DNA from: Squalus acanthias
Taxonomy: Eukaryota
Assembly: GCA_030390025.1 (NCBI GenBank)
Contig: JASTWF010000080.1
Location: 1-64,000, forward strand
Length of the DNA: 64,000 nt
Reading direction: 5' to 3'
The position numbers and the translations under genes were made by a program. Below, one piece after another: positions 3,687 through 51,902 of this stretch. Every line of letters begins with the position of its first letter. Positions within the stretch are counted from its first letter, which is position 1. A model generated the notes under the pieces. That model made no database searches, was not told the origin of the DNA, and saw nothing but the letters and a program-made list of their open reading frames with translations.

Positions 3687-3738
3687 CGGGAGAGACCCAG
3701 GAAAAACACAAGGATATGAAGAAAAGAAGCAGCAACAT
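3687..3738 (-). CDS. MHC class I-like gene, copy 0: leader exon only (MLLLLFFISLCFSWVSP)
   Basis: ATG, 17 hydrophobic codons, phase-1 G then GTAAGT donor; near-identical to the leaders at 31232 and 51851; no alpha1 exon inside the window. Confidence 0.75.
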
Positions 3739-15700: not shown

Positions 15701-15900
15701 TGAACATTTCGCTTGTTCGTCTGCAAGACTGTTTCCTTTTGAGTGTACTGTCCCAGTGGTATGCCCGTTTACATGAATCACCTGACAATTCTGTTTCTCC
15801 ATCCTCGAACGGAGAATGTCTTCCCACAATGACTTATGTTTTATGGGTTTAGCCTTATGGTTGGTAAAGTTTGTTTGTTCCCAGAAAACTAGATCTTGGT

Positions 15901-16554
15901 ATAACAACAGCAAACGCTGGAAAAACTCAGCAGGCCAGGTAGCATCCGTGGAGAGAGAAACAGAGTTAACGTTTCAGGTCGAAGACCTTTCGTCAGAACT
16001 GGAAAAAAGCAGGAAATGAAATAGATTTAAAGCAAGTATAAAGCTGGGAAAAGGGGGAGGGGATGAAAGAACAAAGGGGAAGGTCAGTGGTGGGATAGAA
16101 AGCAGGAGAGATTAAGAGACATTGAGAGACATTAAGAGATAATCAAGGTAAGTGGAGGTGTTAATGTGACAGGTTGAGGCGAGATGAAGTGTGAGATGCG
16201 CTGGCAGAATGAAGGACAGCTGCCAGCTTATGGGAGGGGGGAAAAAAGGCCAAACAAAAGGGTGGATGAAAAAAAATATATAAATGTGATAGGGGCCAAG
16301 GTTATGATCTGAAATTGTTGAACTCAATGTTGAGTCCAGAGGGCTGTAGGGTGCCTAAACGAAAGATGAGGTGCTGTTCCTCGAGCTTACGCTGAGCTTC
16401 CATGGAACAATGCAAGAAGCCGAGGACGGTGAGGTCAGAGTGGGAGTGGAGCGGAGAATTAAAGTGACAGTCCACCGGGAGCTCGGGGTCCCCCTTACGG
16501 ACTGAACGGAGGTGTTCCGCAAAGCGGTCACCCAATCTGCGTTTGGTCTCCCCA
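15901..16554 (-). mobile_element. Penelope-like element 3' fragment (GIY-YIG C-terminus and terminal repeat) inserted in foamy RNase H
   Basis: IGETKRRLGDRFAEHLRSV...KLEEQHLIFRLGTLQPSGLNIEF; ATCTTGGT flanks both sides (15893-15900, 16555-16562). Confidence 0.85.
15961..16002 (-). ncRNA. Minimal hammerhead ribozyme motif in the Penelope terminal repeat
   Basis: Minus strand cagttCTGACGAaaggtcttcgacctGAAACgttaactctg: catalytic boxes, stem II AGGTC-TTC-GACCT and palindromic AACGTT stem III. Confidence 0.6.
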
Positions 16555-19284: not shown

Positions 19285-19398
19285 CTCTCCGTTGTTTTAT
19301 CCAGATGAATATTCCAATTATCCCGATTATAACCAGTGCAGCGACTGTTCCAATTATAATTCCAGGATGGGAGCGTGCTCCACTGTTTTCCGGTATTT
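19285..19398 (-). CDS. MHC I copy 1 connecting peptide/transmembrane exon
   Basis: tttcag|...EIPENSGARSHPGIIIGTVAALVIIGIIGIFIWIKQRR...|gtaag. Confidence 0.9.
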
Positions 19399-22300
19399 CT
19401 GAAACACATTTGAATAATATCAGGATAGTTTCTCTGTTCCCGGATCCATTCCCAGTTCGGTGTCGATGGAGGGACAATTTTAACCTCACCCGCCCGTCGG
19501 GAATCTGAGGGATCGGGTCCAACGCTGGTTTTACTCTCGCCTGATCTCACTCTCCACTGGAGTCAATAAAGAGTCTCATTGATGGTGGTGTTGGACCGGC
19601 GTTGCCCCGATCCCCGGGGTTACCTGCCCGGCGAGCTCGGTTCAATTTACCCCCCATGTCTGTGTCCTGTCCTGGGTCCATCCCCAGGGTCACATTGTAC
19701 GCCCCAGGAGTCAGCATCACTGATGGATTTCACATCAAACTTCAAAGGGATGGGGAATAAATTGACTGCAGCAAACTGGGCTGAGCTGGTAATGAGTAAA
19801 GCTACAGATAAACAGTGGGGACGCTTCAAAAGAAGTACTGGGTACAATCCAACACCAGGACTTTCCCCGACAACGCAAAGACTCCACTTCTGTAGTTAGG
19901 CAACCATGGTCGACAAATGAAAGAAGTGAGAGTATCCAGGTAAAGGGAAAGGCTGACACAGTGACCAGAGATTGAGATACAGAGCACTTAGACAAGTATC
20001 GGCTGATCAGAGAGTCAGCATAGATTTGTGAAGGGTAGGTCCTGTCTGACTAATCTAATTGAATTTTATGAGGAGGTCACTAACATGGTGGATAAGGGAG
20101 TGTCGGTGGATGTTGTGTATCTGGACTTCCAGAAGGCATTTGATAAGGTTCCTCACGAGAGATTATTAGCAGAAATAAAAGCTTACAGATTTGGAGCTAA
20201 TCTTGTGACACGGGTTGAAAATTGGCTGGGAGGAAGGAGTCAGAGAATCGGGATAAAGGGAATGTGCTCCGATTGGCAGGATGTTCTGAGTGGTGTTCCC
20301 CAGGGATCTGTACTGAGGCCTCAGCTTTTCACCATATATATCAATGACTTGGATGAAGGAACAGGGAGTTGTATATCCAAGTTTGCAGATGGCACTAAGT
20401 TAGGATGCACAGTAAAGGGACATTGACAGATTAAATGAGTGAACTGCATCTGCCACAGTTTTGCCCAAGGTGGGGAAGTGTGAGATCATCCACGCGAGAT
20501 CTGAGAAAGACAGATTGGAATATTGTCTCAATGGTGACAGACCAGGAGCTGTAAAGGAGCAAAGAGATTTGGGTGTCCATGTCCACAAATCACTAAAAGC
20601 TCGTGCCAGGGTTAAATAAAGCAATCAAAAAGGCTAATGGAATGTTGGCTTTAATCTCAAGAGGGTGAGAATAGAAAGTGAGGAAATTATGCTTCAGTTG
20701 TACAGACCCTTGGTCAGACTCCATCTGGCGTATTACATTCAGTTCTTGGCACCAAACCTCACGTAAGATATATTGGCCTTGGAGGGGGTACAGAGCAGAT
20801 TCACCAGAATGATACCAGCTCAGAGGGTTAAATTTTGAGGACAAAGTTGGCTTGTATTGCGCTGAGTGTAGAAGGGTGAAGGGTGGTCACATTGAGGTGT
20901 TTAAAATGATAAAGGGATTCGATAGGGTAGATACAGAGAAACTATTTTCACTGGTGGTGAATCCGGAACAAAAGAGCATAATCTTAAAATTAGAGCCAGG
21001 ACAGTTAGAGTGAAATCAGAAAGCACTTCTTCACACAAAGGGCAGTGGAAATCTGGAACTCTCTCCCCCAAAAGTCTGTGGGTTCAATTGAAATTTTTAT
21101 GACTGAGATCGAGTGATTTTTGTTGGGTAAGGGTATCAAGGGATGTAGAGCAATGACGGGTAAATGGAGTTGAGGTACTGATCAGTCATGATCTCATTGA
21201 ATGGTGGAACAGACTCAAGGGGCCGAATGTCCTACTCCTGTTCCTATGATCCATACATGCTCACAGAGACACACGCACACATCCAGTGCAGTTCCTTACC
21301 CCACCGATAGACCTTTGCCTCTGCCAGGCTGCTGTGTTCAATTTGACAGGAGTATTGATCCTCATCCCCAGCATTCACTTCAATCTCGTTCTTGATCTGA
21401 TGGGTCCCATTGTGGTTCGGTCGAACCCCCGAGGAGTGGCTCTCAGACACTGGCTCTCCATTCCTTAGCCAGGTCACCTCGATGTCTACAGGGTAAAATC
21501 CAGTAACCAGGCAGGAGAGAGTGGGCGGTTTGTACTGAATATTGGGGTCAGTTTTGGAGATGAACACTTCGGGCTGAACTGAAAGGGGAAAGGGAGAAAA
21601 CACAAACAGTAGACAGACACCGAATGGAATGGGAGAACGGTTTCATAGATCTGTGAAGTTAGATCAGAACATGGGATAAAAACTGAAATCAATACCTTTC
21701 CTTTCAAAGTATTCCTTTCCAGCTCGCAAATATAAATGTAAATGCTCAACAAATCCTACTTCCAGATGTGTTTTCCAATACTTGTTCCAGGATTCACCCG
21801 AATTCCATTTCTCCATTGTCTTCACCGCATTGTGATTGGATGCGACCCATCTCATTCTGTCTGGCTCTAAACTAATATAGTCCTTTCCGTCATATCCAAC
21901 ACGCATCGATCTCTTAATGGAGCCGTCGTCAGTTATTTCAACGATTGAAATCCATTGAAAAATGTGAACTCCTGTCAGTGACCAAACAGTAATCAATAAT
22001 CAATAGTTAATGGAAAATCACAAATCAGTCTGATCAGAGGGGAAAGGGACTGTAGAATCAGATATAAATGGGGGGGTTAGAGTCACAGACTGATCACAGA
22101 ATCCCCACAGTGCAGATAGAGGCCATTTCGGCCCATCGAGCCTGCACCGACACATATCCCACCCTATCCCCGTAACCCCACGTATTTAATCCCCCTAACA
22201 CCAAGGGTCAATTTATCATAGCCAAATCAACCTAACCCGCACATCTTTGGACTGTGGGAGGAAACCGGAGCACCCGGAGGAAACCCACGCAGACACGGGG

Positions 22301-25300
22301 AGAATGTGCAAACTCCACACAGACAGTCACCCGAGGCCGGATTCGAATCCGGGTCCCTGGCGCTGTGAGGCAACAGTGCTAACCACTATGCCACCGTGTA
22401 GAAATGGGGTGTTAGAGTCACAGTCTGATCAGAGGGGAAAGGGGCTGTAGAATCAGGGGGAAATGGGGGGTTAGAGTCACTGTCTGATCAGAGGGGAAAG
22501 GGGCTGTAGAATCAGGGGGAAATGGGGGGTTAGAGTCACAGTCTGATCAGAGGGGAAAGGGACTGTAGAATCAGGGGGAAATGGGGGGTTAGAGTCACAG
22601 TCTGATCAGAGGGGAAAGGGACTGTAGAATCAGGGGGAAATGGAGTGTCCCAGGGGTCAGTGCTAGGAGATGGGCTGAGTGGAGTGTCCCAGGGATCAGT
22701 GCTGGGAGATGGGCTGAGTGGAGTGTCCCAGGGGTCAGTGCTGGGAGATGGGCTGAGTGGAGTGTCCCAGGGGTCAGTGCTGGGAGATGGGCTGAGTGGA
22801 GTGTCCCAGGGATCAGTGCTGGGAGATGGGCTGAGTGGAGTGTCCCAGGGATCAGTGCTGGGAGATGGGCTGAGTGGTGCGCTAGACATTGACCAGTACA
22901 CATGGTTAAAAGGTCATTGCTTCAGCAGGAACATCGACGTCTCCTCCCAACACGCATGCTCGTTAGTGTTACGATCTGTTGAATGCTCTCCGCACATTCT
23001 CCATCCATGAGTGAGTGCCTCTGTCCCTAATAGTCTTCACTGCCTTAACTCTCTGAGGTATTTAACACAGAGAGTCCCATTCTCCTTTCACACTGCCTCC
23101 TGGATTGGCATTGCCCATTCTGCTCTACTGGAGAAGACCGATCTCACCCCCAGATATATGAATATACACCGAGACACAAAAAGAAGCCAGGAATTGCCCA
23201 ACAAGCTTCCCTTTCCTGGATGGTCACAACCATCTCACCATATTCTCAACTTGCTCTATCGCAAACCTCTCCTGATCTTCGTCAATGTGGTCAGAACTTT
23301 GTAAATATCTCGATCAGAATAGGGAGAAGGAACAGAATAACTGTCTGTGTGTCCCTGATTCATGGTGGCCATACACTATACAGTCCAGTGTTAGAATGCA
23401 GTATAACTATGGCTGGGTACCTGTCCGGCACCCATTAAACAGGGCAGGCGGTGGGAGATTCTGCTGATCTTACCGGATGTCTGGTTTGTCCCCTTCATTA
23501 TCGTATTCAGATTCTCCTTTGCTGTGGTTGACAGTGTGTTCCCGAGACCTGTGAGAAGATCCCAGTATTCCACATCGAAAGCGTCTGCCATGAACTGCTG
23601 CCTGGGGATCATCCGACGGATATCAGTGTCATGATAATTAAGTTGAACTCCCTTCACCATCGCAACATTAGTAACCTCGGGAAAGTCACTAATGCCAGAG
23701 ATTGCCATGTACATCACAGTAAGTGAGTTAGTGTCTGTAAAATAAACAATTAAAGGGACAGATTAATAGAGTCATAGAGTTATACAGCATAGAAAGAGGC
23801 CCTTCGGCCCATCGTGTCCGTGCCGGCCATCAAGCCCTGTCTATTCTAATCCCATTATCCAGCACTTGGTCCGTAGCCTTGTATGCTATGGCGTTTCAAG
23901 TGTTCATCTAAATGCTTCTTGAATGTTGTGAGGGTTCCTGCCTCTACCACCCTTTCAGGCAGTGAGTTCCAGATTCCAACCACCCTCTGGGTGAAAAAGT
24001 TTTTCCTCAAATTCCCTCTAAACCTCCTGCCCCTTACCTTGAAACTATGCCCCCTGGTTATTGACCCCTCTACTAAGGGGAAAAGTTCCTTTCCATCTAC
24101 CCTATCTATGCCCCTCATAATTTTGTACACCTCAATCAGGTCCCCCCTCAGCCTTCTCTGCTCTAAGGAAAACAACCCCAGCCTGTCCAGTCTCTCTTCA
24201 TAGCGGAAGCGCTCCAGCCCAGGTAACATCCTGGTGAATCTCCTCTGCACCCTCTCCAATGCATTCACATCCTTCCTATAGTGTGGCGACCAGAACTGCA
24301 CACAGTATTCCAGCTGTGGCCTAACTAGCATTTTGTACAGCTCCATCATAACCTCCCTGCTCTTATATTCTATGCCTTGACTAAAGGAGGCAAGTATCCC
24401 ATATGCCATTTTAACCACCTTATCTACCTGTCCTGCTGCCTTCAGGGATCTATGTACATGCACACCAAGGTCCCTCTGATCCTCTGTCCTTCCTAGGGTC
24501 CTACCATTCTTTGTGTATTCCCTTGCCTTGTTAGTCCTCCTAAAATGCATCACCTCACACTTTTCAGGGTTAAATTCCATTTGCCACTGCTCTGCCCATC
24601 GAACCAATCCATCTATATCGTCCTGTAGCCTGAGGCTTCCCTCCTCGCTATTTACCACTCTTCCAATTTTCATGTCATCTGCGAACTAACTGATCATACC
24701 TCCTACATTCATATCTAAATCATTAATGTACACTACAAACAGCAAAGGACCCAGCACCGATCCCTGCGGTACACCACTGGACACAGGCTTCCAGTCACAA
24801 AAACAACCTTCGACCATCACCCTCTGCCTCCTGCCACTAAGCCAATTTTGGATCCAATGTGCCAAATTGCCCTGGATCCCATGGGCTCTTACCTTCTTGA
24901 CCAGTCTCCCATGTGGGACTTTGTCAAAAGCCTTACTGAAGTTCATGTAGACTACATCAACTGCACTACCCTCATCCACACACCTAGTCACCCCCTCGAA
25001 AAATTCAATCAAATTGGTTAGACATGATTTCCCCCTGACAAAGCCATGCTGACTATCCTTGATTAATCCTTGCCTCTCCAAGTGGAGACTAATTCTGTCC
25101 CTCAGAATTTTTTCCAATAATTTCCCTACCACTGATGTTAGGCTCACTGGCCTGTAATTCCCTGGTTTATCCCTTCTTGAATAATGGTATTATGTTAGCT
25201 GTTCTCCAGTCCTCTGGCACCTCCCCTGTGGCCAGAGAGGTTCTGAAAATTTGTGTCAGAGCCCCTGCAATCTCCTCCCTTGCCTCACACAGCAGCCTGG

Positions 25301-28300
25301 GATACATCTCATCTGGGCCTGGGGATTTATCCACTTTTAAGCCCGCTAAAACCGCTAGTACCTCCTCCCTCTCAATACTAATTTGTTCAAGTATATCTCA
25401 ATCCCCCTGCCTGATTTCTATGCCTATATCGTCCTTCTCCATAGTGAACACAGATGCAAAATATTCATTTAAAACCTCACCTACATCTTCTGGCTCTACA
25501 CACAGATTGCCACTTTGGTCCCTAATGGGCCCTACTCTTTCCCTGGTTATCCTCTTGCCCTTAATATACTTATAAAACACCTTGGAATTTTCCTTTATTT
25601 TGCCCGCCAGTGTTTTTTCATGCCCCCTCTTCGCTCTCCTAATTTCTTTTTTAAGTAGCCCCCTGCACTTTCTATACTCCTCTAGGGCTTCCACTGTTTT
25701 TAGTCCTTTGTATCTGCCAAAAGCCTCCCTTTTTTTCCTAATCCATTCTCGTATATCCCTTGACATCCAGGGTTCCCTGGGCTTGTTGGTGCCACCCTTG
25801 ACCTTTACGGGAACATGTTGGCGTTGTACTCTCTCTATTTCCTTTCTGAAAGACTCCCACTGCTCTGTACATAATAAACATTTACAAACACTATTCAAAG
25901 TGATGCCCATTCAAAAAATGACAATCTCCAACAGCCCACCACTTTATCGCAACGTCTGATATTATAAATATAATACAATTAAACTGGGTCAGAATCAGAT
26001 GGCTGCAGCACCTCCCAACAGGGAGTAAACATGGAATCAGAGTCACTGAGATGCCTGATGAAGTCCGAGGGGACACGTGGGCGAGTCGGGGACACATTCG
26101 AGGGATGGTGGTGTTAAACAGAAGGGGGGAAAAATTCAGTATCGTCCCATTTGGGGCGCAATTATCGGCCGGGCGCAAAGTTTAGCGCCTGGTGCTAATT
26201 ATCGCCTCCGACTGCAAACTTGGCTTTTATCGCCCCTGGAGGTGATTGGAGCGCTAAATCAGGCGCTTCACACCTGTCTTAAGGCGCAAAGGCCGAGGAG
26301 CGAGGCGCTACCTCAGAGCGCTGGCAAAGCTCATGTGATGTTAGTCAGCAATTGAACACAGACACAATGGCGCCGGCCAGTTCTTAAGGGTGAGAGATGA
26401 TCTTGCTCTCCATCCACATCCTGCTCATTGCAGCCTTGAATCTCGGCCTGGAGAGACCTGTACATCAAATCTGCTGGAAAGAACAATGGAGAGGCCCAGG
26501 GAAAGAGCTCAGAGTGCAGCCCCCACAGACTCTTCTAAATCGATACAAGGAAGGGCAAATCAAAATGAACCTGCAAAGTGCTGCTCAGTACCCAAAACTC
26601 CTTCACACAGCGTTGAATCTCTCCAGAAGTCTCTCTCTCTCTCTCTCAGAATGCGTGGTGCAAAAATGTGACGAACAAAAAAAAGGCAGGAAGCGTCCGC
26701 CTTGAAATAGCGCTCCCCCAGTCCCTTCCTGACTGCAAAACGCTCCCCTCAACCTGTCGTTGCTAGGCGGTAAGGCAGGGGGCACCACTCAATATCCAGT
26801 CCGGGGCGCTACCAGGGCGTTGCAACTCGACTGACGTCACGATCTGCCGGCGTAAAAGATCGTGGCGGTAGTGTTCAGCGCCGCCGCAAAATGTCTCGTT
26901 AATTTCATGAGCGGCGCAAACATCGCTGTGCCCGGGCGTTAGTTGCTTTGCGCCACATTAGCGCCTTCTTAAGGCGATAACGGGAGGCAAAGCAACTGAA
27001 TTTTTCCCCCAAGATCTCTAAACAAGGAACAGTAACCTGGGACACACCCGGTCTATCTCAAACCAGGAACAGTAACCTGGAACACACCCGGTCTATCTCG
27101 AACCAGGAACAGTAACCTGGGATACACCCGGTCTATCTCTAACCAGGAACAGTAACCTGGGACACACCCGGTCTATCTATAACCAGGAACAGTAACCTGG
27201 GACACACCCGGTCTATCTCTAACCTGGAACAGTAACCTGGGACACACCCGGACTAAATCTACCCTGGAACAGTAACCTGGGACACACCCGGTCTATCTCT
27301 AACCAGGAACAGTAACCTGGGACACACCCGGTCTATCTCTAACCAGGAACAGTAACCCGGGACACACCCGGACTAAATGTACCCTGGAACAGTAACCTGG
27401 GACACACCCGGTCTATCTCTAACCTGGAACAGTAACCTGGAACACAACCGTTCTATCTCTAACCTGGAACAGTAACCTGGGACACACCCGGTCTATCTCT
27501 AACCAGGAACAGTAACCTGGGACACACCCGGTCTATCTCTAACCAGGAACAGTAACCTGGGACACACCAGGTCTATCTCTAACCTGGAACAGTAACCTGG
27601 GACACACCCGGTCTATCTCTAACCTGGAACAGTAACCTGGGACACACTCGGTCTATCTCTAACCTGGAACAGTAGCCTGGGACACACCCAGTCTATCTCT
27701 AACCAGGAACAGTAACCTGGGACACACCCGGTCTAACAATAACCTGGAACAGTAACCTGGGACACACCCAGTCTATCTCTCACCTGGATCAGTAACCTGG
27801 GACAAACCCGGTCTATCTCTAGCCAGGAACAGTAACCTGGGACACACCCGGTCTATCTCTAACCAGGAAAAGTAACCTGGGACACACCCGGTCTATCTCT
27901 AACCAGGAACAGTAACCTGGGACACACCCGGTCTATCTCTAACCTGGAACAGTAACCTGGGACACAACCGTTCTATCTCTAACCTGGAACAGTAACCTGG
28001 GACACACCCGGTCTATCTCTAACCAGGAACAGTAACCTGGGACACACCGGGTCTATCTCTAACCAGGAACAGTAACCTGGGACACACCCGGTCTATCTCT
28101 AACCAGGAACAGTAACCTGGGACACACCCGGTCTATCTATAACCAGGAACAGTAACCTGGGACACACCCGGTCTATCTCTAACCTGGAACAGTAACCTGG
28201 GACACACCCGGTCTATCTCTAACCAGGAACAGTAACCTGGGTCACACCCGGTCTATCTCTAACCTGGAACAGTAACCTGGGACACACCCGGTCTATCACT

Positions 28301-31283
28301 AACCTGGAACAGTAACCTGGGACACACCCTGTCTATCACTAACCTGGAACAGTAAGCTGGGACACACCCAGTCTATCTCTAACCAGGAACAGTAACCTGG
28401 GACACACCCGGTCTATCTCTAACCTGGAACAGTAACCTGGGACACAACCGTTCTATCTCTAACCTGGAACAGTAACCTGGGACACACCTGGTCTATCTCT
28501 AACCTGACACAGTAACCTGGGACACACCCGGTCTATCTCTAACCAGGAACAGTAACCCGGGACACACCCGGTCTGTCTATAACCTGGAACAGTAACCTGG
28601 GACACACCCGGTCTATCTCTAATCAGGAACAGTAACCTGGGACACACCCGGTCTATCTCTAACCAGGAACAGTAACCTGGGACACACCCGGTCTATCTCT
28701 AACCTGGAACAGTAACCTGGGACACACCCGGTCTATCTCTAACCTGTAACAGTAACCTGGGACACACCGGTTCTATCTCTAACCTGGAATAGTAACCTGG
28801 GACACACCCGGTCCATCTCTAACCTGGAACAGTAACCCGGGACACATCCGGTCTATCTCTAACCAGGAACAGTAACCTGGGACACACCCGGTCTATCTCT
28901 AACCAGGAACAGTAACCTGGGAAAAAACCCGGTCAATCTCTAACCTGGAACATTGACTTGGGATAAATCCAACTCTATCTGAAACTTAACCAGGGGACAT
29001 CTGGAGAGAGATATTGAGGAGACCCTCCTGACCAGGGAACATCTGGAGAGAGATATTGAGGAGACCCTCCTGACCAGGGGACATCTGGAGAGAGATATTG
29101 AGGAGACCCTCCTGACCAGGGAACATCTGGAGAGAGCTAGTGAGGAGACCCTCCTGACCAGGGGACATCTGGAGAGAGATATTGAGGAGACCCTCCTGAC
29201 CAGGGAACATCTGGAGAGAGCTAGTGAGGAGACCCTCCTGACCAGGGAACATCTGGAGAGAGGAATTGTGGATAACCCGAGGGCAGGTCTGTTGTTTATC
29301 GTCATAACGATGTGGGAATAAAAATTCGATTGCCCCTGAAAACGAGTGCGGGGATCTCAACACGCAATCAACCCGCACCCGGTCAAAGTACTGCAGGAAG
29401 CACGCAAACTTCGTGCTGTCTGGTAATTATAATGATTGTAACGTGCAGCCAACGCTTAACATGCTGCTGAGAGGCTGCATGCCTCAGCAGGGGGCCCAAG
29501 TTCTCGCGAGGCTAGCACCACTTAAAGCTAGCCTGCACTACTTAAAGCCAGCCTGCACGTCTTAAAGGGGAGGTGCATTCTGGCTGCAGCAGGTACTGGA
29601 AGTCATTGTAGAGGTGTATGAGACCTGCAGGAAGAATGAAGATGGTGCAACATGGCAGAGAGGGCTCCCAGATTTTCTGATGCAGTACTCGAGGGCCTGG
29701 TGCAGCAGGTGGACAGGAGGAGAGATGTCGCTGAATCCACAGGGGACCAGGAGGCCCTCCAGACAAACTGTGAGAAGGCAATGGGAGCAGAAAGCCGTCG
29801 TGGTCAATGCCAGCAGGGCAAGAAGTTTAATGACCTCACGCCAGTGGTCACGGTCAGTGAATTCATCTTCAAATGCCACATCCTTACAACTGAACCACTG
29901 CTCAATTCATCACCCGCCCCTCCTTCACTCTCACCTACCAACAAACTCCATCAATCACGATTCATACCTCACATTCATAGCACCACCTCACCCTCACAAA
30001 CTTAGCACTGCTGAACCCTCACACCCACAGCTCACACCTTGCACACACTGCCAGCTATTCAACCATGACAGCCACATCACCCAAACACAAGGTGGATACA
30101 AACTACTGCACCCATGTCTGGGAGCAACTAATCTAAGCAGAAGCCTTGAAGTAAGCTGCCACACCAATCCCTGGAGACGTCAGCAACTTCAAATAAGATA
30201 ACAAACCACCAAACACTTCTACAAACTCACCAAGAGCCAGTAGAAATCAATCAGCACCTAACCTGAAAGCAGTTGATGGTCCCTTTAAATAGCGCTGGTG
30301 GGCGGTCCTCCCAGCATGTTCAGCTGTGTGTCTTTAAGAGAGGGCGTTAGCTGGAGTGTGGAGCTCAAAAATGGCAGCGCTGGTGTCAAATCACCATTAC
30401 ACACTGACTGACGTCACGATCTGCCTACCCTGCAAACTTCCGACGCACACTCCCAGCGCCCGCGCTAACAAACTACCCAAAATGGTGTCCACGCGGCCCA
30501 CACCAGAAGCAGGCGCGCGTGGCGCGGAATCCATTTTAGACACAAAACGCCACCTGTAGCACCAAAAAACCGAGCGCTACCGAGTCGAATTTCGCGGCCG
30601 TGCTGTGAGAGAATTCAGAAATGAACAGAAGGGAAACAGTGATATTTGGGAAGATGAAGTGCGATGCCATGGGGTGCGGTCACTCTAGGAACAGTCTGAC
30701 TGTCGACCAGGGGTGATGGACAATCAGGGGCAGCAGCTCCACTGTGCTTCACAGATCCTATAATGACCACTTTACACATGGGCAGTAGGGGCCCAAAGGA
30801 TGTTGGTGGTGGATTGTCTGAGATAACCTGGCCTATTCAACCACGAGGGCATCACAGCTGAGCCTGGCGTGGGTTAAACATGGATTATCCTCCCGGCACA
30901 GTTCAGAACACTTTAGTCCAGGAGAGGTGAAGCTGTTTCCCGTCTCCCAAACAATGTGAACATTAAAATTGCCCATTTCAACCATTTTCCACTTGCTACA
31001 AGCCTCCCTGCTCTCTGTATTCCTGCGTGTTGCTGTCAGGAGGCCTGCGCACAACTCCCACCGCAGGCTGACGGCCTGTGCTGGCTCCAATGGTGTGAAA
31101 TATCAGGCAGGATGTAGAACCGGCGGCCGATCAAACATCACCCTTTTCAAACTCTCGCCAAAAGCTCAAAATCACCCACACACAGAGAGAGAGAGAGAGA
31201 GTGAGAATGGAGGGATGAGTTCTGTACTTACCGGGAGAGACCCAGGAAAAACACAGGGATATGGAGAAAAGAATCAGCAACAT
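19285..31283 (-). CDS. Non-classical MHC class I heavy chain, copy 1 (exons 31283-31232, 23734-23474, 21971-21696, 21578-21300, 19398-19285; cytoplasmic exon uncertain)
   Basis: Five open exons of class I size (52, 261, 276, 279, 114 nt), all GT-AG phase 1; motifs FPE, YW, NQT, GYDGKDY, C1-set LSCLVTGFYP...YSCQIEHSSL. Confidence 0.9.
19468..19655. mobile_element. Short MITE-like element (also about 42516-42700)
   Basis: Imperfect TIRs GGGACAATTTTAACC / GGTTCAATTTACCCCC. Confidence 0.45.
19975..21247 (+). mobile_element. Degenerate CR1 LINE 3' part in the alpha3-TM intron
   Basis: KGRSCLTNLIEFYEEVT...DFQKAFDKVPH...SGVPQGSVL...FADGTKL followed by a CR1 tail. Confidence 0.9.
21300..21578 (-). 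CDS. MHC I copy 1 alpha3 exon (Ig C1-set)
   Basis: VQPEVFIS...LSCLVTGFYPVDIEVTWLRNG...PNHNGTHQI...YSCQIEHSSL...VYRW; 279 nt. Confidence 0.93.
21696..21971 (-). CDS. MHC I copy 1 alpha2 exon (no cysteine)
   Basis: GVHIFQWISIVEITDDGSI...GYDGKDYISL...AVKTMEKWN...HLEVGFVEHLHLYLRAGKEYFERK; 276 nt. Confidence 0.92.
22030..22640. repeat. 59-bp tandem repeat (also 45230-45440), interrupted by a SINE
   Basis: Unit gtcacagtctgatcagaggggaaaggggctgtagaatcagggggaaatggggggttaga. Confidence 0.85.
22091..22398 (-). mobile_element. HE1-like V-SINE, copy 1 only
   Basis: tRNA-like head (cacggtggcatagtggttagcac...gggttcgaatcc), V-domain (gggtttcctccgggtgctccggtttcctcccaca) and CR1-type tail. Confidence 0.85.
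22641..22877. repeat. 39-bp minisatellite GGAGTGTCCCAGGGATCAGTGCTGGGAGATGGGCTGAGT, about 6 copies
   Basis: Direct tandem repeat. Confidence 0.95.
23474..23734 (-). CDS. MHC I copy 1 alpha1 exon
   Basis: ttttacag|DTNSLTVMYMAISGISDFPE...YHDTDIRRMIPRQQFM...EYW...IMKGTNQTS|gtaag; 261 nt. Confidence 0.92.
23769..25871 (-). mobile_element. 5'-truncated CR1 LINE in intron 1 of copy 1 only
   Basis: ORF2 pieces 23855-24673, 24686-25147 and 25398-25870; TAATA duplicated; empty site near 48170. Confidence 0.92.
26125..27010. mobile_element. Harbinger-derived non-autonomous DNA transposon
   Basis: TIRs GGGGGAAAAATTCAGT / ACTGAATTTTTCCCCC with AAG on both flanks. Confidence 0.8.
27015..28952. repeat. 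40-bp minisatellite AACC(A/T)GGAACAGTAACCTGGGACACACCCGGTCTATCTCT, about 48 copies
   Basis: Direct tandem repeat; about 9-10 copies at 49320-49710. Confidence 0.95.
28989..29260. repeat. 42-bp tandem repeat, about 6.5 copies (about 2.5 at 49735-49840)
   Basis: Unit gaccagggaacatctggagagagatattgaggagaccctcct. Confidence 0.9.
29314..30599 (+). mobile_element. Harbinger-derived element with Myb/SANT-like protein remnant
   Basis: MAERAPRFSDAVLEGLVQQVDRRRDV at 29652; degenerate TIRs AAATTCGA / TCGAATTT. Confidence 0.65.
31232..31283 (-). CDS. MHC I copy 1 leader exon (MLLILFSISLCFSWVSP)
   Basis: ATG, signal peptide, phase-1 GTAAGT donor compatible with the alpha1 acceptor; SXY module about 170-240 bp upstream. 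Confidence 0.85.
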
Positions 31284-41414: not shown

Positions 41415-44400
41415 CTGAGAAAATAAAACAGAATGTGAGAAATGGGAATAAAATATATAAATAGAGAATGTGAGATATTCTACATCACTGACTGGGCCCA
41501 GGAGCCAATCACCTCCCAGCAATAACTAAACAGACTCACAAATGATAAATGTGCACAGAGACAAGGGACTGGAGGGCGAGGGACTGGAGAGCGAGGGACT
41601 GGAGGACGAGGGACTGGAGGGTGAGGGACAGGAGAGCGAGGGACTGGAGGGGGAGGGACTGGAGGGGGAGGGACTGGAGGGCGAGGGGCTGGAGGGCGAG
41701 TGGCTGGAGGGCGAGGGGCTGGAGGGCGAGGGGCTGAACGGCGAGGGGCTGAACGGCGAGGGACTGGAGAGCGAGGGACTGGAGAGCGAAGGGCTGGAGG
41801 GCGAGGGGCTGGAGGGCGAGGGACTGGAGTTCGAGGGACTGGATGGCGAGGGACTGGAGGGCGAGGGACTGGCGGGCGAGGGATTGGAGTTTGAGGGACT
41901 GGAGTTTAAGGGACTGGAGGGCGCGGGATTGGTGTGAGTAACGCAGAGTGTAATAAATGTCAGTTGGAATGGGGATAACCCATTATTAGAGTGTGAGCAC
42001 ACACCCAGTGTGAGGATCGGAGAGTGTGTACTCACTCTGTCCCTCAGTTCTACATTCCTCTCTCTCACTCTCTCCTCTCAGTGCCCTGTGCTCCCAGTAC
42101 TGGAGATTCCCCACACTCACTCTGTCCCTCAGTTCTACATTCCTCTCTCTCACTCTCTCCTCTCAGTGCCCTGTGCTCCCAGTACTGGAGATTCCCCACA
42201 CTCACTCTGTCCCTCAGTTCTACATTCCTCTCTCTCACTCTCCCCTCTCAGTGCCCTGTGCTCCCAGTACTGGAGATTCCCCACACTCACTCTGTCCCTC
42301 AGTTATACATTCCCCTCTCTCTGATTCTTACCTCTCCGTTGTTTTATCCAGATGAATATTCCAATTATCCCGATTATAACCAGTGCAGCGACTGATCCAA
42401 TTATAATTCCAGGATAGGAGCGTGCACCACTGTTTTCCGGTATTTCTGAAACACATTTGAATAATATCAAGGTAGTCTTTCTTTTCCCGGATCCATTCCC
42501 AGTTCGGTGTCAACGGAGGGACAATTTTAACCTCACCCGCCCGTCGGGAATCTGAGGGATCGGGTCCAACGCTGGTTTTACTCTCGCCTGATCTCACTCT
42601 CCATTGGAGTCAATAAAGAGTCTCATTGATGGTGGTGTTGGACCGGCGTTGCCCCGATCCCCGGGTTACCTGCCCGGCGAGCTCGGTTCAATTTACCCCC
42701 CATGTCTCTGTGTCCTGTCCTGGGTCCATCCCCAGGGTCACATTGTACGCCCCAGGAGTCAGCATCACTGATGGATTTCACATCAAACTTCAAAGGGATG
42801 GGGAATAAATTGACTGCAGTAAACTGGGCTGAGCTGGTAATGAGTAAAGCTACAGATAAACAGTGGGGACGCTTCAAAAGAAGTACCGGGTACAATCCAA
42901 CACCAGGACTTTCCCCGACAACGCAAAGACTCCACTTCTGTAGTTAGGCAACCATGGTCGACAAATGAAAGAAGTGAGAGTATCCAGGTAAAGGGAAAGG
43001 CTGACACAGTGACCAGAGATTGAGATACAGAGCACTTAGACAAGTATCGGCTGATCAGAGAGTCAGCATGGATTTGTGAAGGGTAGGTCCTGTCTGACGA
43101 ATCTAATTGAATTTCATGAGGAGGTCACTAACATGGTGGATAAGGCAGTGTCGGTGGATGTTGTGTATATGGACTTCCAGAAGGCATTTGATAAGGTTCC
43201 TCACGAGAGATTATTAGCAGAAATAAAAGCTTACAGAATTGGAGCTAATCTTGTGACACGGGTTGAAAATTGGTTGGGAGGAAGGAGTCAGAGAATCGGG
43301 ATAAAGGGAATGTGCTCCGATTGGCAGGATGTTCCGAGTGGTGTTCCCCAGGGATCTGTACTGAGGCCTCAGCTTTTCACCATATATATCAATGATTTGG
43401 ATGAAGTTTCACATTCTCACCACTCTCTGGGTAAAGAAGTTTCTTCTGAATTCCCTATTGGATTTCTTGGTGACTATCTTATATTGATGGCCTCTATGCT
43501 CTTCCCCACAAGTGGAAACATTCTCTCTGTATCCACTCAATCAAATCCGGTCATAATTTTATAGACTCTATTAGGTCACCCCTCAGCCTTCTTTTTTCAA
43601 GTGAAAAGAGACCCAGCTTGTTCATCTTTTCCTGATATGTATAGCCTCGCATTTCTGGTATCATCCTTGTAAATCTTCTCTGCACCCTCTCCAGGCCTCT
43701 ATATCCTTTTTATAATATGGCGACCAGAACTGTACGCAGTACTCCAAGTGTGGTCTAACCAAGGATTGATGAAGGTTTAGCATAACTTCACTACTTTTCC
43801 ATTCTATCCCTCTAGAAATAAACCCTAGCGCTTGATTTGCTTTTTTTATGGCCTTGTTACCTGTGGCGCAACTTTTAGTGATTTGTGTATTTGTACTCCA
43901 AGATCCCTTTGTTCCTCTAACCCACCTCTGGCGTACTACATTCAGTTCTGGGCACCAAACCTCACGTAAGATATATTGGCCTTGGAGGGGGTACAGAGCA
44001 GATTCACCAGAATGATACCAGCTCAGAGGGTTACATTTTGAGGACAAAGTTGGCTTGTATTGCGCTGAGCGTAGAAGGATGAAGGGTGATCACATTGAGG
44101 TGTTTAAAATGATAAAGGGATTGGATAGGGTAGATACAGAGAAACTATTTTCACTGGTGGTGAATCCGGAACAAAAGAGCATAATCTTAAAATTAGAGCC
44201 AGGACATTTAGGAGTGAAATCAGAAAGCACTTCTTCACACAAAGGGCAGTGGAAATCTGGAACTCTCTCCCCCAAAAGTCTGTGGGTTCAACTGAAATTT
44301 TTATGACTGAGATCGAGTGATTTTTGTTGGGTAAGGGTATCAAGGGATGTAGAGCAATGACGGGTAAATGGAGTTGAGGTACTGAACAGTCATGATCTCA

Positions 44401-47400
44401 TTGAATGGTGGAACAGACTCAAGGGGCCGAATGTCCTACTCCTGTTCCTATGATCCATACATGCTCACAGAGACACACGCACACATCCAGTGCAGTTCCT
44501 TACCCCACCGATAGACCTCTGCCTCTGCCAGGCTGCTGTGTTCAATTTGACAGGAGTATTGATCCTCATCCCCAGCATTCACTTCAATCTCGTTCTTGAT
44601 CTGATGGGTCCCATTGTGGTTCGGTCGAACCCCCGAGGAGTGGCTCTCAGACATTGGCTCTCCATTCCTTAGCCAGGTCACCTCGATGTCTACAGGGTAA
44701 AATCCAGTAACCAGGCAGGAGAGAGTGGGCGGTTTGTCCTGACTATTGGGGTCACTTCTGGAGATGAACACTTCGGGCTGAACTGAAAGGGGAAAGGGAG
44801 AAAACACAAACAGTAGACTGACACCGAATGGAATGGGAGAACGGTTTCATAGATCTGTGAAGTTAGATCAGAACATGGGATAAAAACTGAAATCAATACC
44901 TTTCCTTTCAAAATATTCCTTTCCAGCTCGCAAATATAATGTTAAATCATTAACAAATCCTTGTTCTAGATGTGCTTTCCAATACTTGTTCCAGGATTCA
45001 TCCGAATTCCATTTCTCCATTGTCTTCACTGAATTGTGATTGGTTGCGACCCATCTCATTCTGTCTGGCTCTAAACTAAGATAGTCCTTTCCGTCATATC
45101 CAACACGCATCGATCTCTTAATGGAGCCGTCGTCAGTTATTTCAACAATTGAAATCCATTGAAAAATGTGAAGTCCTGTCAATGACCAAACAGGGATCAA
45201 TAATCAATAGTTAATGGAAAATCACAAATCAGTCTGATCAGAGGGGAAAGGGACTGTAGAATCAGGGGGAAATGGGGGGATAGAGTCACAGTCGGATCAG
45301 AGGGGAAAGGGGCTGTAGAATCAGGGGGAAATGGGGGGTTAGAGTCACAGTCTGATCAGAGGGGAAAGGGACTGTAGAATCAGATAGAAATGGAGGGTTA
45401 AAGTCACAGACTGATCAGAGAGGAAAGGGGCTGTAGAATCGGTAGAAATATCAGAAGGGTTCCCAGTGGAAGCTGATTATTGGACTTTTTTAAGTGAATT
45501 CAGAGACCAGCCTGAACCTTCCTATTAATGGGCAGAAGTTTAACGGAATGATTAATGGGAAATTGGGCAGAGATCCATTATGTTACCCAACCAAGAGGGT
45601 TAAATCCCACTAGTGTAAGCAAAGGAGTAAATTCCCAGCACGGTAACAACATGAGTTAATTCCCAACACACTAACGGAAGGGGTTACTTCACAGAATGGA
45701 GTGTCCCAGGGGTCAGTGCTGGGAGATGGACTGAGTGGAGTGTCCCAGGGATCAGTGCTGAGAGATGGGCAGAGTGCAGTGTCCCAGGGATCAGTGCTGG
45801 GAGATGGACTGAGTGGAGTGTCCCAGGGATCAGTGCTGGGAGATGGACTGAGTGGAGAGTCCCAGGGATCAGTGCTGGGAGATGGACTGAGTGGAGTGTC
45901 CCAGGGATCAGTGCTGGGAGATGGACTGAGTGGAGTGTCCCAGGGATCAGTGCTGGGAGATGGACTGAGTGGAGTGTCCCAGGGGTCAGTGCTGGGAGAT
46001 GGACTGCGTGGAGTGTCCCAGGGGTCAGTGCTGGGAGATGGACTGCGTGGAGTGTCCCAGGGGTCAGTGCTGGGAGATGGGCTGAGTGGAGTTTCTCAGG
46101 GATCAATGCTGGGAGATGGACTGAGTGATGTGTTCCAGGGATCAGTGCTGGGAGATGGACTGTGTGATGTGTCCCAGGGATCAGTGCTGGGAGATGGGCT
46201 GAGTGGAGTGTCCCAGGGGTCAGTGCTGGGAGATGGACTGAGTGGAGTGTCCCAGGGGTTAGTGCTGGGAGATGGACTGAGTGGAGTGTCCCAGGGATCA
46301 GTGCTGGGAGATGGGCTGAGTGGAGTGGCCCAGGGATCAGTGCTGGGGGCAGAGTGCAGTGTCCCAGGGATCAGTGCTGGGAGATGGACTGAGTGGAGTG
46401 TCCCAGGGATCAGTGCTAGGGGCTGAGTGGAGTGTCCCAGGGGTCAGTGCTGGGGGCTGAGTGGAGTGTCCCAGGGATCAGTGCTGGGAGATGGGCTGAG
46501 TGGAGTGTCCCAGGGATCAGTGCTGGGAGATGGGCTGAGTGGAGTGTCCCAGGGATCAGTGCTGGGAGATGGGCTGAGTGATGTGTCCCAGGGATCAGTG
46601 CTGGGAGATGGGCTGAGTGGAGTGTCCCAGGGATCAGTGCTGGGAGATGGGCTGAGTGGAGTGTCCCAGGGATCAGTGCTGGGAGATGGGCTGAGTGGAG
46701 TGTCCCAGGGATTAGTGCTGGGAGAAGGACTGACTGGAGTGTCCCAGGGATCAGTGCTGGAAGATGGGCTGAGTGGAGTGTCCCAGGGATCAGTGCTGGA
46801 AGATGGGCTGAGTGGAGTGTCCCAGGGGTCAGTGCTGGGAGATGGACTGAGTGGAGTGTCCCAGGGATCAGTGCTGGGAGATGGGCTGAGTGGAGTGTCC
46901 CAGGGATCAGTGCTGGGAGATGGACTGAGTGGAGTGTCCCAGGGATCAGTGCTGGGAGATGGGCTGAGTGGAGTGTCCCAGGGATCAGTGCTTGGGGATG
47001 GGCTGAGGGGAGTGTCCCAGGGATCAGTGCTGGGAGATGGGCTGAGTGGAGTGTCCCAGGGATCAGTGCTGGGAGATGGACTGAGTGGAGTGTCCCAGGG
47101 GTCAGTGCTGGGAGATGGGCTGAGTGGAGTGTCCCAGGGGTCAGTGCTGGGAGATGGACTGAGTGGAGTGTCCCAGGGGTCAGTGCTGGGAGATGGACTG
47201 AGTGGAGTGTCCCAGGGGTCAGTGCTGGGAGATGGGCTGAGTGGAGTGTCCCAGGGATCAGTGCTCGGAGATGGGCTGAGTGGAGCGCTAGACATTGACC
47301 AGTACACATGCTTAAAAGGTCATTGCTTCAGCAGGAACATCGACGCCTCCTCCCAACACGCATGCTCATTAGTGTTACGATCTGTTGAATGCTCTCCGCA

Positions 47401-50400
47401 CATTCTCCATCAAGGAGTGAGTGCCTCTGTCCCTTACAGTCTTCACTGCCTTAACTCTCTGAGGTATTTATCACAGAGAGTCCCATTCTCCTTTCACACT
47501 GCCTCCTGGATTGGCATTGCCCATTCTGCTCTACTGGAGAAGACCGATCTCACCCCCAGATATATGAATATACACCGAGACACAAAAAGAAGCCAGTAAT
47601 TGCCCAACAAGCTTCCCTTTCCTGGATGATCTCAACCATCTCACCATATTCTCAACTTGCTCTATCGCAAACCTCTCCTGATCTTCGTCAATGTGGACAG
47701 TACTTTGTAAATATCTCGATCAGAATAGGGAGAAGGAACAGAATAACCGTCTGTGTGTCCCTGATTCATGGTGGCCATACACTATACAGTCCAGTGTTAG
47801 AATGCAGTATAACTATGGCTGGGTACCTGTCCGGCACCCATTAAACAGGGCAGGCAGTGGGAGATTCTGCTGATCTTACCGGATGTCTGGTTTGTCCCCT
47901 TCATTATCGTATTCAGATTCTCCTTTGCCTTGCCTGACCGTGTGTTCCCGAGATCTGTGAGATATTCCCAGTATTCCACATCGAAAGCGTCTGCCATGAA
48001 CTGCTGCCTGGGGATCATCCGACGGATATCAGTGTCATGATAATTAAGTTGAACTCCCTTCACCATCGCAACATTAGTAACCTCGGGAAAGTCACTAATG
48101 CCAGAGATTGCTGTGTACATCACAGTAAGTGAGTTAGTGTCTGTAAAATAAACAATTAAAGGGACAGGTTAATAAACATTTACAAACACGATTCAAAGTG
48201 AAGCCCATTCACACAATGACAATCTCCAATAGTCCACCACTTTATCGCAACGTCTGATATTATAAACATAATACAATTAAACTGGGTCAGAATAAGATGG
48301 CTGCAGCCCCTCCAAACAGGGAGTAAACGCGGAATCAGAGTTACTGAGACGCCCGATGGAGTCCATGGGAATACGTGAGAGAGTCTGGGACACATTCAAT
48401 GGGTTGGGGTGTTAAAGAGAAGCGGGGAGAAATTCAGTATTGCCCCATTTGGGGCGCAATTATCGGCCGGGCGCAAAGATTAGCGCCTGGCGCTAATTAT
48501 CACCACCGACTGCAAACTTGACTTTTATCGCCCCTGGAGGTGATTGCTGCGCTAAATCAGGCGCTTCACACCTGTCTTAAGGCTCAAAGGCCGAGGAGCG
48601 AGGCGCTACCTCAGAGCGCTGGCGAAGCTCATGTAATGTCAGTCAGCAATGGAACACACACACAATGGCGCGGGCCAGTTCTTAAAGGGGATGGTTAATC
48701 TTGCTTTCCATCCACATCCTGCTCATTGCAGCCTTGAATCTTGGCCTGGAGAGACCTGCACATCAAATCTGCTGGAACGAACAATGGAGAGTACCAGGCA
48801 AAGAGCTCAGATTGCAGCCCCCACAGTCTCTTCTAAATCAATACAAGGAATGGCAAATCAAAATGAACCTGCAAAGTGCTGCTCAGTACCCAAAACTCCT
48901 TCACACAGCGTTGAATCTCTACAGAAGTCTCTCTCTCTCTCTCTCAAAATGCGTAGTTCAAAAATGGCACCAACAATAAAAGGCAGGAAGCGGTCACCTT
49001 TAAATAGCGCTCCCCCTTTCCCTTCATGACTGCAGAACGCTCTCCTCAACCTGTTGTTGCTAGCGCCAGGCGGTAAGGCAGGGGGCGCCACTCAATATCC
49101 GCTCCGGGGCGATACCGGGGCGTTGCGCACTCGACTGACGTCACGATCTGTCGGCGCAGGAGATTGTGGCGGTAGTGTTTAGCGCCGCCGCAAAATGTCT
49201 AGTTAATTTCGCGAGCGGCGCAAACTTCGCCGCGCCTAGGCGCTAGATGCTTTGCGCCCCATTAGCGCCCTCTTAAGGTGCTAACGGGAGGCGCAACCAA
49301 CTGAATTTTTCCCCCAAGATCTCTAACCAAGGAACAGTAACCTGGGACACACCTGTTCTATCTCTAAACTGGAACAGTAACCTGGGACACACTCGGTCTT
49401 TCTCTAACCAGGAACAGTAACCAGAGACACACCTGGTCTATCTCTAACCAATGAACAGTAACCTGGGACACACCTGGTCTATCTCTAACCTGGAACAGTA
49501 ACCTGGGACACACCCGGTCGATCTCTAAACTGGAACAGTAACCTGGGACACACTCGGTCTTTCTCTAACCAGGAACAGTAACCAGAGACACACCTGGTCT
49601 ATCTCTAACCAAGGAACAGTAACCTGGGACACACCCGGTCTATCTCTAACCTGGAACATTAACCTGGTACACACCCGGTCTATCTCTAACCTGGAACATT
49701 GACCTGGGATAAATCCAACTCTATCTGAAACTCAACCAGGGGACATCTGGAGAGAGATATTGAGGAGACTCTCCTGACCAGGGAACATCTGGAGAGAGAT
49801 GTTGAGGAGACCCTTCTGACCAGGGAACATCTGGAGAGAGGAATTGTGGATAACCCGTGGACAGGTCTGTTGTTTATCATCATAACCAGGAAACATGTGG
49901 GAATAAAAATTCGATTGCCCCTGAAAACGGGTGCGGGGATCGCAACGCGCAATCAACCCGCACCCGGTCAAAGTACTGCAGGAAGCACGCAAACTTCGTG
50001 CTGTCTGGTAAATATGATTGTAACGTGCAGCCAACGCTTAACATGCTGTTGAGAGGCTGCACACCTCAGCAAGGGGCCCAAGTTCGTGCGAGGCTAGCAC
50101 CACTTAAAGCTAGCCTGCACTACTTAAAGCCAGCCTGCACGTCTTAAAGGGGAGGTGCATTCTGGCTGCAGCAGGTACTGGAAGTCATTGTAGAGGTGTA
50201 TGAGACCTACAGGAAGAATGAAGATGGTGCAACATGGCAGAGAGGGCTCCCAGATTTTCTGATGCAGTACTCGAGGGCCTGGTGCAGCAGGTGGACAGGA
50301 GGTGAGATGTCCTGAATCCACAGGGGACCAGGAGGCCCTCCAGACAAACTGTGAGAAGGCAATGGGAGCAGATAGCCGTCGTGGTCAATGCCAGCAGGGC

Positions 50401-51902
50401 AAGAAGTTTAATGACCTCACGCCAGTGGTCACGGTCAGTGAATTCATCTTCAAATGCCACATCCTTACAACTGAACCACTGCTCAATTCATCACCCGCCC
50501 CTCCTTCACTCTCACCTACCAACAAACTCCATCAATCACGATTCATACCTCACATTCATAGCACCACCTCACCCTCACAAACTTAGCACTGCTGAAGCCT
50601 CACACCCACAGCTCACACCTTGCACACACTGCCAGCTATTCAACCATGACAGCCACATCACCCAAACACATTGCACCACACCCACTGACACACTTCCCTC
50701 TCTCTTGCAGGACAAGGTGGATACAAACTACTGCACCCATGTCTGGGAGCAACTAATCTAAGCAGAAGCCTTGAAGTAAGCTGCCACACCACTCCCTGGA
50801 GACTTCAGCAACTTCAAATAAGATAACAAGCCACCAAACACTTCTACAAACTCACCAAGAGCCAGTAGAAATCAATCAGCACCTAACCTGAAAGCAGTTG
50901 ATGGTCCCTTTAAATAGCGCTGGTGGGCGGTCCGCCCAGCATGTTCAGCTGTGTGTCTTTAAGAGAGGGCGTCAGCTGGAGTGTGGAGCTCAAAAATGGC
51001 AGCGCTGGTGTCAAATCACCATTACACACTGACTGACGTCACGATCTGCCTACCCTGCAAACTTCCGGCGCACACTCCCAGCGCCCGCGCTAACAAACTA
51101 CCCAAAATGGTGTCCGCGCGGCCCACACCAGAAGCGGGCGCGCGTGGCGCGGAATCCATTTTAGACACAAAACGCCACCCGTAGCACCAAAAAACCGAGC
51201 GCTACCGAGTCGAATTTCGCGGCCGTGCTGTGAGAGAATTCAGAAATGAACAGAAGGGAAACAGTGATATTTGGGAAGATGAAGTGCGTTGCCATGGGGT
51301 GCGGTCACTCTAGGAACAGTCTGACTGTCGACCAGGGGTGATGGACAATCAGGGGCAGCAGCTCCACTGTGCTTCACAGATCCTATAATGACCACTTTAC
51401 ACATGGGCAGTAGGGGCCCAAAGGATGTTGGTGGTGGATTGTCTGAGATAACCTGGCCTATTCAACCACGAGGGCATCACAGCTGAGCCTGGCGTGGGTT
51501 AAACATGGATTATCCTCCCCGCACAGTTCAGAACACTTTAGTCCAGGAGAGGTGAAGCTGTTTCCCGTCTCCCAAACAATGTGAACATTAAAATTGCCCA
51601 TTTCAACCATTTTCCACTTGCTACAAGCCTCCCTGCTCTCCGTATTCCTGCGTGTTGCTGTCAGGAGGCCTGCGCACAACTCCCACCGCAGGCTGACGGC
51701 CTGTGCTGGCTCCAATGGTGTGAAATATCAGGCAGGATGTAGAACCGGCGGCCGATCAAACATCACCCGTTTCAAACTCTCGCCAAAAGCTCAAAATCAC
51801 CCACACACAGAGAGAGAGAGAGAGAATGGAGGGATGAGTTCTGTACTTACCGGGAGAGACCCAGGAAAAACACAGGGATATGGAGAAAAGAATCAGCAAC
51901 AT
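41383..51902 (-). CDS. Non-classical MHC class I heavy chain, copy 2 (exons 51902-51851, 48140-47880, 45175-44900, 44782-44504, 42445-42332, probable 41414-41383)
   Basis: All exons open, GT-AG phase 1, same sizes as copy 1; candidate cytoplasmic exon supplies a stop codon. Confidence 0.9.
41565..41925. repeat. 15-bp tandem repeat GAGGGCGAGGGACTG
   Basis: About 24 copies; copy 2 only. Confidence 0.9.
42332..42445 (-). CDS. MHC I copy 2 transmembrane exon
   Basis: EIPENSGARSYPGIIIGSVAALVIIGIIGIFIWIKQRR; 114 nt. Confidence 0.9.
43020..44451 (+). mobile_element. Degenerate CR1 in the alpha3-TM intron, with an opposite-strand CR1 segment at about 43406-43920
   Basis: Colinear with 19975-21247 except for the replaced middle segment. 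Confidence 0.85.
44504..44782 (-). CDS. MHC I copy 2 alpha3 exon
   Basis: VQPEVFISRSDPNSQDKPPTLSCLVTGFYP...YSCQIEHSSL; 279 nt. Confidence 0.93.
44900..45175 (-). CDS. MHC I copy 2 alpha2 exon (no cysteine)
   Basis: GLHIFQWISIVEI...GYDGKDYLSL...HLEQGFVNDLTLYLRAGKEYFERK; 276 nt. Confidence 0.92.
45697..47285. repeat. 39-bp minisatellite, about 40 copies
   Basis: Expanded counterpart of 22641-22877. Confidence 0.95.
47880..48140 (-). CDS. MHC I copy 2 alpha1 exon
   Basis: DTNSLTVMYTAISGISDFPE...EYWEYLTDLGNTRSGKAKENLNTIMKGTNQTS; 261 nt. Confidence 0.92.
48423..49315. mobile_element. Harbinger-derived non-autonomous DNA transposon (paralogue of 26125-27010)
   Basis: Same TIRs and same intron position. 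Confidence 0.8.
49320..49840. repeat. 40-bp and 42-bp minisatellites, short versions
   Basis: Same units as 27015-29260. Confidence 0.9.
49899..51224 (+). mobile_element. Harbinger-derived element with Myb-like remnant (paralogue of 29314-30599)
   Basis: Colinear sequence. Confidence 0.65.
51851..51902 (-). CDS. MHC I copy 2 leader exon
   Basis: MLLILFSISLCFSWVSP, G|gtaagt. Confidence 0.85.

Follow-up and report, generated by a model that had tools for sequence, protein, structure and literature searches.

Two tandem MHC class I genes that encode no cysteine in the α2 domain are found in the window, the 64,000-nucleotide stretch of spiny dogfish (Squalus acanthias) DNA analysed here (contig JASTWF010000080.1, positions 1 to 64,000). 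In the accessible text of PMC9359109 and PMC6926029, the C101-C164 bond, which neither gene can form, is treated as a conserved part of the class I structure, one that TAPBPR binding requires in HLA-A2. Taken as a whole, the data lead us, with moderate confidence, to read the genes as members of a non-classical shark family, very likely UEA, whose product would be a β2m-bound presenting molecule with an A-pocket end that has been rebuilt and varies between copies. Published reference sequences already show the absence of the cysteines, and the lineage itself is therefore no discovery; what is new are the dogfish members, the evidence against pairwise compensation for the lost bond, and the movement of variability onto the helix around it.

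Organization of the Two Class I Genes

Both genes (A and B) lie on the minus strand and have the layout of an MHC class I heavy chain, with leader, α1, α2, α3, and transmembrane (TM) exons and phase-1 introns. Gene A is comprised of a leader exon (coding part 31232..31283, located by tblastn to a homologue, with an ATG and a GT donor), an α1 exon (23474..23734) with Val at position 7, the N86 sequon and no Cys, an α2 exon (21696..21971), an α3 exon (21300..21578) with both Ig cysteines, and an exon for the connecting peptide and TM segment (19285..19398). The corresponding exons of gene B are found at 51851..51902 (leader, coding part), 47880..48140 (α1), 44900..45175 (α2; V101, F164, and no Cys), 44504..44782 (α3), and 42332..42445 (TM). 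Read from 21971 to 21696, the α2 exon of gene A runs from an AG acceptor to a GT donor in phase 1 at both ends, with an open frame and not a single Cys codon. In both genes all five exons are intact, with canonical splice sites throughout and no stop or frameshift, where intact refers to the gene up to the TM exon. These features support the open frames reported by an earlier sequence-only reading of the window (the first-pass annotation), and a window gene product matches PF00129. The leader exon of a further copy is located at 3687..3738 on the minus strand, and no other exon was found between it and the start of the contig.

Nurse-shark UDA (P0308), which belongs to another lineage, has exactly the same 17-residue leader as the window genes (31232-31283 in gene A). 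Retroelement-like frames, integrase-like and LINE reverse-transcriptase-like, were recognized by eye in and between the genes (14324-15973, 23858-25910, and 37020-38354, all on the minus strand), and long tandem repeats occupy about 1.0-2.1, 4.9-6.8, 31.8-34.5, 45.7-47.3, and 52.4-53.8 kb of the window.

Absence of the α2 Cysteines

Ungapped alignment to the solved class I chain 7cpo_A places Val (codon GTT, 21942-21940) at C101 and Phe (codon TTT, 21753-21751) at C164 of gene A, and the α2 exon of gene B (45175-44900) also reads V/F, so the central observation of the first-pass annotation, zero α2 Cys with this replacement in both paralogues, holds. It was equally correct that α1 carries no Cys and the α3 pair is intact in both window genes, and the residues that it listed as retained (Q96, D119, G120, D122, and the N86 glycan site) are all present in the alignment. 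All seven α2 exons of the family on the contig are free of Cys, with Val or Ala at 101 and Phe or Leu at 164, whereas other chondrichthyan class I proteins retain C101 in 73/74 cases and C164 in 74/74; the absence is therefore neither chance nor sequencing error. The teleost S and P lineages retain the cysteine pair, as far as the accessible portion of PMC4364491 describes them. No statement of the shark loss was found in the literature searched, although the papers defining the lineages lay outside its reach, and the part of PMC9586880 that could be consulted holds nothing on it. The α2 row of a ray sequence labeled UHA in Supplemental File 10 of PMC10751288 is also Cys-free, possibly through a separate loss.

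A Multicopy Family Found in Sharks

A protein search with the α2 domain gave 52 proteins from 61 candidates, all from sharks. In a profile search, the best 107 matches (at least 326 bits) among the 120 listed of 128 consisted of 106 shark proteins and one unnamed, and beyond these the identity falls to mostly 32-38%. Among the matches listed, the family spans 13 named species and no rays, whose class I proteins in the database belong to other lineages, the protein search being word-seeded and of a kind that rays could escape. The 13 species, which we take to represent six orders, each carry numerous paralogues; no dogfish member was present among the proteins returned by the searches. An α2 match was obtained for 101 of 109 family representatives, giving 103 domains. 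Position 101 is never Cys (0/93; V86, A3, I2, L2), and position 164 is occupied by 11 different residues (L31, F26, Y11, C10, S7, D5, G4, T2, V1, H1, and W1; n = 99).

A phylogeny was calculated with IQ-TREE from 65 ectodomains after deletion of columns 101 and 164, comprising 51 family rows, UCA, and 13 others taken from a FastTree; models that were partial or tandem-fused and duplicate isoforms were excluded, and the nurse-shark reference described below also lay outside the tree. The family forms a clade (100/99) with UCA as its sister (97/85), dogfish copies A-E group with the sawshark protein P0053 (96/81), and the UBA-like and UGA-like rows are separate clades from the family. The state at C101 changes once on this tree, and that at C164 twice within the family. 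Because the UCA branch is long (1.37), a single loss of C101 shared by the family and UCA is not secure.

Lineage Assignment

Among the sequences in Supplemental File 10 of PMC10751288 is one from nurse shark with an assembly-style NODE name, Gcirratum_UCA_NODE_26056. It comes from the laboratory that described UEA, is labeled UCA, and has V101/L164 and thus neither α2 Cys. Compared by eye, it is identical to gene A at 61/92 positions in α2 and 75/93 in α3, and to copy F, its closest match on the contig, at 60/87 in α1; gene A and copy F share 42/87 residues in α1. The file lists UAA, UBA, UCA, UDA, UFA, UGA, and UHA, and the string UEA is absent from it. UEA is described as an expanded multigene family of sharks (PMC10751288 and the accessible part of PMC12562908), a trait that the seven α2 and ten α3 exons on one dogfish contig fit. 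Nine white-shark homologues are found on one 115.8 Mb chromosome. UEA is reported to be present in sharks and absent from rays and chimaeras, to be related to UCA, and to have a hydrophobic groove and weak tissue expression.

With high confidence we identify the family as the UEA lineage, a name that is reached indirectly, since the reference itself would be UEA only by inference. That the family is instead an undescribed lineage distinct from UEA appears most improbable: the UCA label of the matching reference and the missing string UEA would favor it, but UEA is the sole lineage letter that the supplement lacks, and section 9 of PMC10751288 presents UEA as the gene with multiple copies in the class Ib cluster next to brd2 and b2m. 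The accession numbers of the white-shark homologues also lie around those of b2m and class II, and their grouping resembles that of the MHC-Ib LOC numbers in the chromosome 19 table of PMC10751288, which is circumstantial evidence against a distinct lineage. The first-pass annotation had raised the possibility of a new lineage or sub-lineage; this did not survive, because the genes nest in a family whose published references (nurse shark and dogfish UCA) already lack both Cys, and they are very likely new members of a described shark family. The class Ib cluster that contains UEA is bounded by brd2/b2m and rxrb/slc39a7. In dogfish, the window contig is separate from the contig on which a BET domain is found next to UAA-like genes (C3751) and from that with an slc39a7-like gene (C26).

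Comparison with Named Class I Lineages

The window genes share with the UEA reference a multicopy, shark-only distribution, a near-identical α3, V101, and the lack of α2 Cys, and differ from it in belonging to another sub-branch, shared with sawshark P0053, and in having F164 in place of L164. Dogfish UCA is represented by a distant, Cys-free α2 exon on contig C2098 (locus L009) that is 100% identical to UniProt Q8HWI9, a spiny dogfish non-classical class I sequence that Supplemental File 10 of PMC10751288 gives as UCA (AF515705). UCA (V101, V164) has V7, W97, and the loss of G100 and G112 in common with gene A, but it is identical at only 18/87, 31/91, and 40/91 positions by domain, lacks T143, K146, W147, Y171, and N86, and lies on another contig than the window genes. 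UCA proper was rejected as the identity of the window genes, their α2 identity to Q8HWI9 being 34% and L009 being its true match. A second UCA copy, L017 (C2098:282412-282624), has an α2 frame that ends after about 70 codons and is probably broken.

UCA, UAA, UBA-like, and UGA-like sequences match gene A in α2 at only 22-34 of 90-91 positions. Classical UAA (Sqac-UAA, Q8HWH7; nurse shark 6LUP) and UBA have the same exon layout, class I fold, β2m contacts, N86 sequon, and T143/K146/W147 as the window genes but, unlike them, keep C101-C164, G100, and G112, with groove-domain identity of about 30%; UAA also keeps Y7, R84, Y159, and W167. A classical class Ia assignment (UAA) was rejected, as gene A has V7, G84, and H159, though Y59, T143, K146, W147, and Y171 are kept. 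Nurse shark UDA (P0308) and UGA are MHC-linked non-classical class I, as the family would be, but keep the α2 cysteines. UBA and UGA were set aside as separate tree clades, and UDA and UFA, compared by eye, because both retain the two α2 Cys.

The Groove and Its Predicted Structure

Residues were counted in 51 family rows using HLA-A2 numbering set by motif anchors, with roles taken from the accessible part of PMC4364491 and from what is established for class I. The surroundings of the bond and the A-pocket are largely dismantled: Y7, G100, C101, G112, and W167 occur in none of the rows and Y159 in 6, with Y59 in 27 and Y171 in 33. Other chondrichthyan class I rows have G100 in 73/74 and G112 in 71/74. 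The opposite, F-pocket end of the groove is kept (T143 in 42, K146 in 49, W147 in 51, and Y123 in 45), as are the β2m contacts (H93, Q96, G120, and D122 in all 51, D119 in 49), N86 (50), and the helix core (L160 in 44, V165 in 43, and L168 in 50). The loss of the bond thus accompanies the loss of Y7, G100, G112, and W167 at one end of a groove whose other end and β2m contacts persist. In the portion of PMC6926029 that could be consulted, the bond sits within the A-pocket and ties the α2-2 helix to the sheet, and its mutation abolishes TAPBPR binding.

An AlphaFold model of the sawshark protein P0053, which also has V101/F164, shows the α1-α2 platform at pLDDT 84-95 with a weaker α3, values to which resemblance to class I structures already solved may contribute. 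The model superimposes on class I folds with Z of about 23.5-23.9 and an r.m.s. deviation of 5-7 Å over about 255 residues. Both class I and MR1 structures are among its matches, so the model does not discriminate between ligands. The hydrophobicity of the groove floor is 1.49 in gene A, 1.24-1.41 in UAA, and 1.91-2.11 in UGA-like sequences; a lipid groove is not supported, the gene A score being near UAA and below UGA-like.

Variability Around the Lost Bond

The segment 158-170 has a mean entropy of 1.82 across 50 family rows, compared with 0.88 for α2 overall, and ranks first of 79 windows, having been picked after the ranks were seen and from rows that are related rather than independent. 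The same segment ranks 59th of 79 in UBA-like (22 rows), 71st in UAA-like (28), 70th in UGA-like (12), and 57th in a fourth bond-keeping lineage (12). Positions 99-100 on the groove floor are highly variable as well (2.21), and together with 158-170 they make up the most variable part of α2. Among dogfish copies A-D, pN/pS reaches 2.26 within 158-170 against 0.40 for the remainder of α2 (small pairwise counts), and with copies F and G added the values are 1.03 and 0.60. The diversity of 158-170 could reflect either relaxed constraint or positive selection.

For the deep pair A/F, dN/dS is 0.45 in α1 and 0.47 in α2, with dS of 0.82 in α1, 0.29 in α2, and 0.00 in α3. No purifying signal was observed in α3 among the seven copies, whose few differences (4 synonymous, 12 non-synonymous) are in an about neutral ratio (P 0.70). 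Since this exon is homogenized, its dN/dS within the dogfish genome is uninformative, and only comparison between species reveals constraint on α3 (mean entropy 0.38). The earlier argument that the genes are functional rather than decaying is consequently upheld in part: the loss is old and lineage-wide, but the α3 variation on which a test of that argument turned is about neutral and lends it no help.

A Proposed Mechanism and Its Alternatives

The mechanistic part of our reading, which we regard as evenly poised, would have the 158-170 helix pinned by the conserved L160, V165, and L168 and not by a V101/F164 pair. The ligand would be gripped at the F-pocket end, and the A end might accept something other than a free peptide N terminus, such as an extended, modified, or lipid-bearing end. 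Loading would be independent of TAPBPR-type editing, which needs the bond in HLA-A2, and each paralogue may have its own ligand or receptor specificity.

Within the same lineage, the groove might alternatively be empty or closed and the protein a receptor ligand or decoy resembling MIC or HFE, with 158-170 as a receptor- or pathogen-facing surface. Consistent with this, several of the most variable positions (158, 162, 166, 169, and 170) face upward from the helix in class I structures, and the floor carries the bulky W97 (43/51) and M114 (51/51), with R99 in 25/51. We consider it unlikely, as the residues that bind the peptide C terminus (T143, K146, W147, and Y123) are kept across six shark orders and the groove-facing positions 99, 159, 163, and 167 are as variable as the exposed ones. 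A different account of the lost bond, proposed by the first-pass annotation, holds that the cysteines gave way to V101 and F164, a hydrophobic pair that would compensate for them. V/F is indeed the second commonest pair and is present in the sawshark orthologue as well as several subclades, and most residues at 164 are hydrophobic (L31, F26, and Y11 of 99). It is nevertheless found in only 22/103 α2 domains, the entropy of position 164, which accepts 11 residues including Cys, is the 10th highest of 91, and dogfish copies C and D combine F164 with A101. Because the residue at 164 that accompanies V101 can be L, F, C, S, Y, G, D, V, H, W, or T, there is no fixed V101/F164 pair, and compensation appears improbable.

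It is more improbable still that the window copies arose by recent duplication, have no function, and are drifting neutrally within an otherwise functional family. The neutral-looking variation of α3, the codon identity of copies B and E over three exons, and the presence of three neighbors without α1 and α2 speak for drift, but the five uninterrupted exons and canonical splice sites of genes A and B speak against it, as does the clustering of changes on the groove helices, where α1 has 17 non-synonymous variants to 1 synonymous among copies A-E (P 0.058).

Returning to the preferred reading of a β2m-bound presenter with a rebuilt A-pocket end, a broader proposal can be put forward tentatively, and we think it somewhat less probable than not. 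UEA and UCA would form one ancient clade that dropped the α2 disulphide together with the whole A-pocket network, shifting the diversifying surface onto the freed 158-170 helix and leaving a half-open groove with C-terminal anchoring only and loading free of tapasin-family editing. A connection between loss of the bond and relocation of diversity may not have been reported before. A large bond-free shark family, with natural variants at 164 from Gly to Trp and including a lone Cys, also provides a series in which the folding and loading of the groove can be tested.

Other Class I Copies in the Dogfish Genome

Searching the same genome with the α2 domain (20 matches of 47 candidates) revealed seven copies on contig C3663 at 65-100% identity, in addition to a broken fragment on contig C13 and distant class I exons elsewhere, and the α3 query found ten copies on C3663. 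Some copies are probably decaying, because copy G has no detectable α1 or leader and carries W37R in α3. The α1 exon assigned to copy C (C3663:86511-86774) is about 13.5 kb from its α2 and has two new cysteines four residues apart. Copy E (C3663:123870-131354) is codon-identical to gene B (window 42332-51902) in α1, α2, and α3, with 99.2% identity over 3.4 kb, and is either a very recent duplicate of gene B or a retained haplotype. The α3-to-TM half (window 21300-21578 and paralogues) is 97-98% identical among copies with deeply divergent α1 exons, a sign that the 3′ half may recently have been converted or shuffled.

Three copies run from leader to α3 to TM without α1 or α2 (C3663:200058-206910 (+), 336891-330380 (-), and 696532-704675 (+); loci L051-L062). 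They share one breakpoint, their homology to gene A stopping at window position 21672, and the third has Trp replaced by Arg in α3. As the leader donor and α3 acceptor are canonical and in phase, these copies could encode a membrane protein with a single Ig domain and no groove, or they could be remnants; a leader-α3 form was absent among 13 short or partial protein matches from other sharks.

Outside the family, at least 16 α2 exons at C26:32.7-38.4 Mb (L035-L039, L041, and L042) form one cluster with four on C1054, C2252, C3263, and C99. Seven exons of the C26 cluster that were compared match the nurse-shark UGA reference by eye; UGA is described as single- or low-copy in the accessible part of PMC12562908 and looks strongly expanded in dogfish. 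An slc39a7-like gene lies at C26:32.11 Mb, and a class I gene at C26:30.708-30.710 Mb (L040 / L011) has both α2 Cys and no close UAA-UHA reference by eye. Next to UGA, the trees also show a second well supported clade, made up of proteins from sharks and rays.
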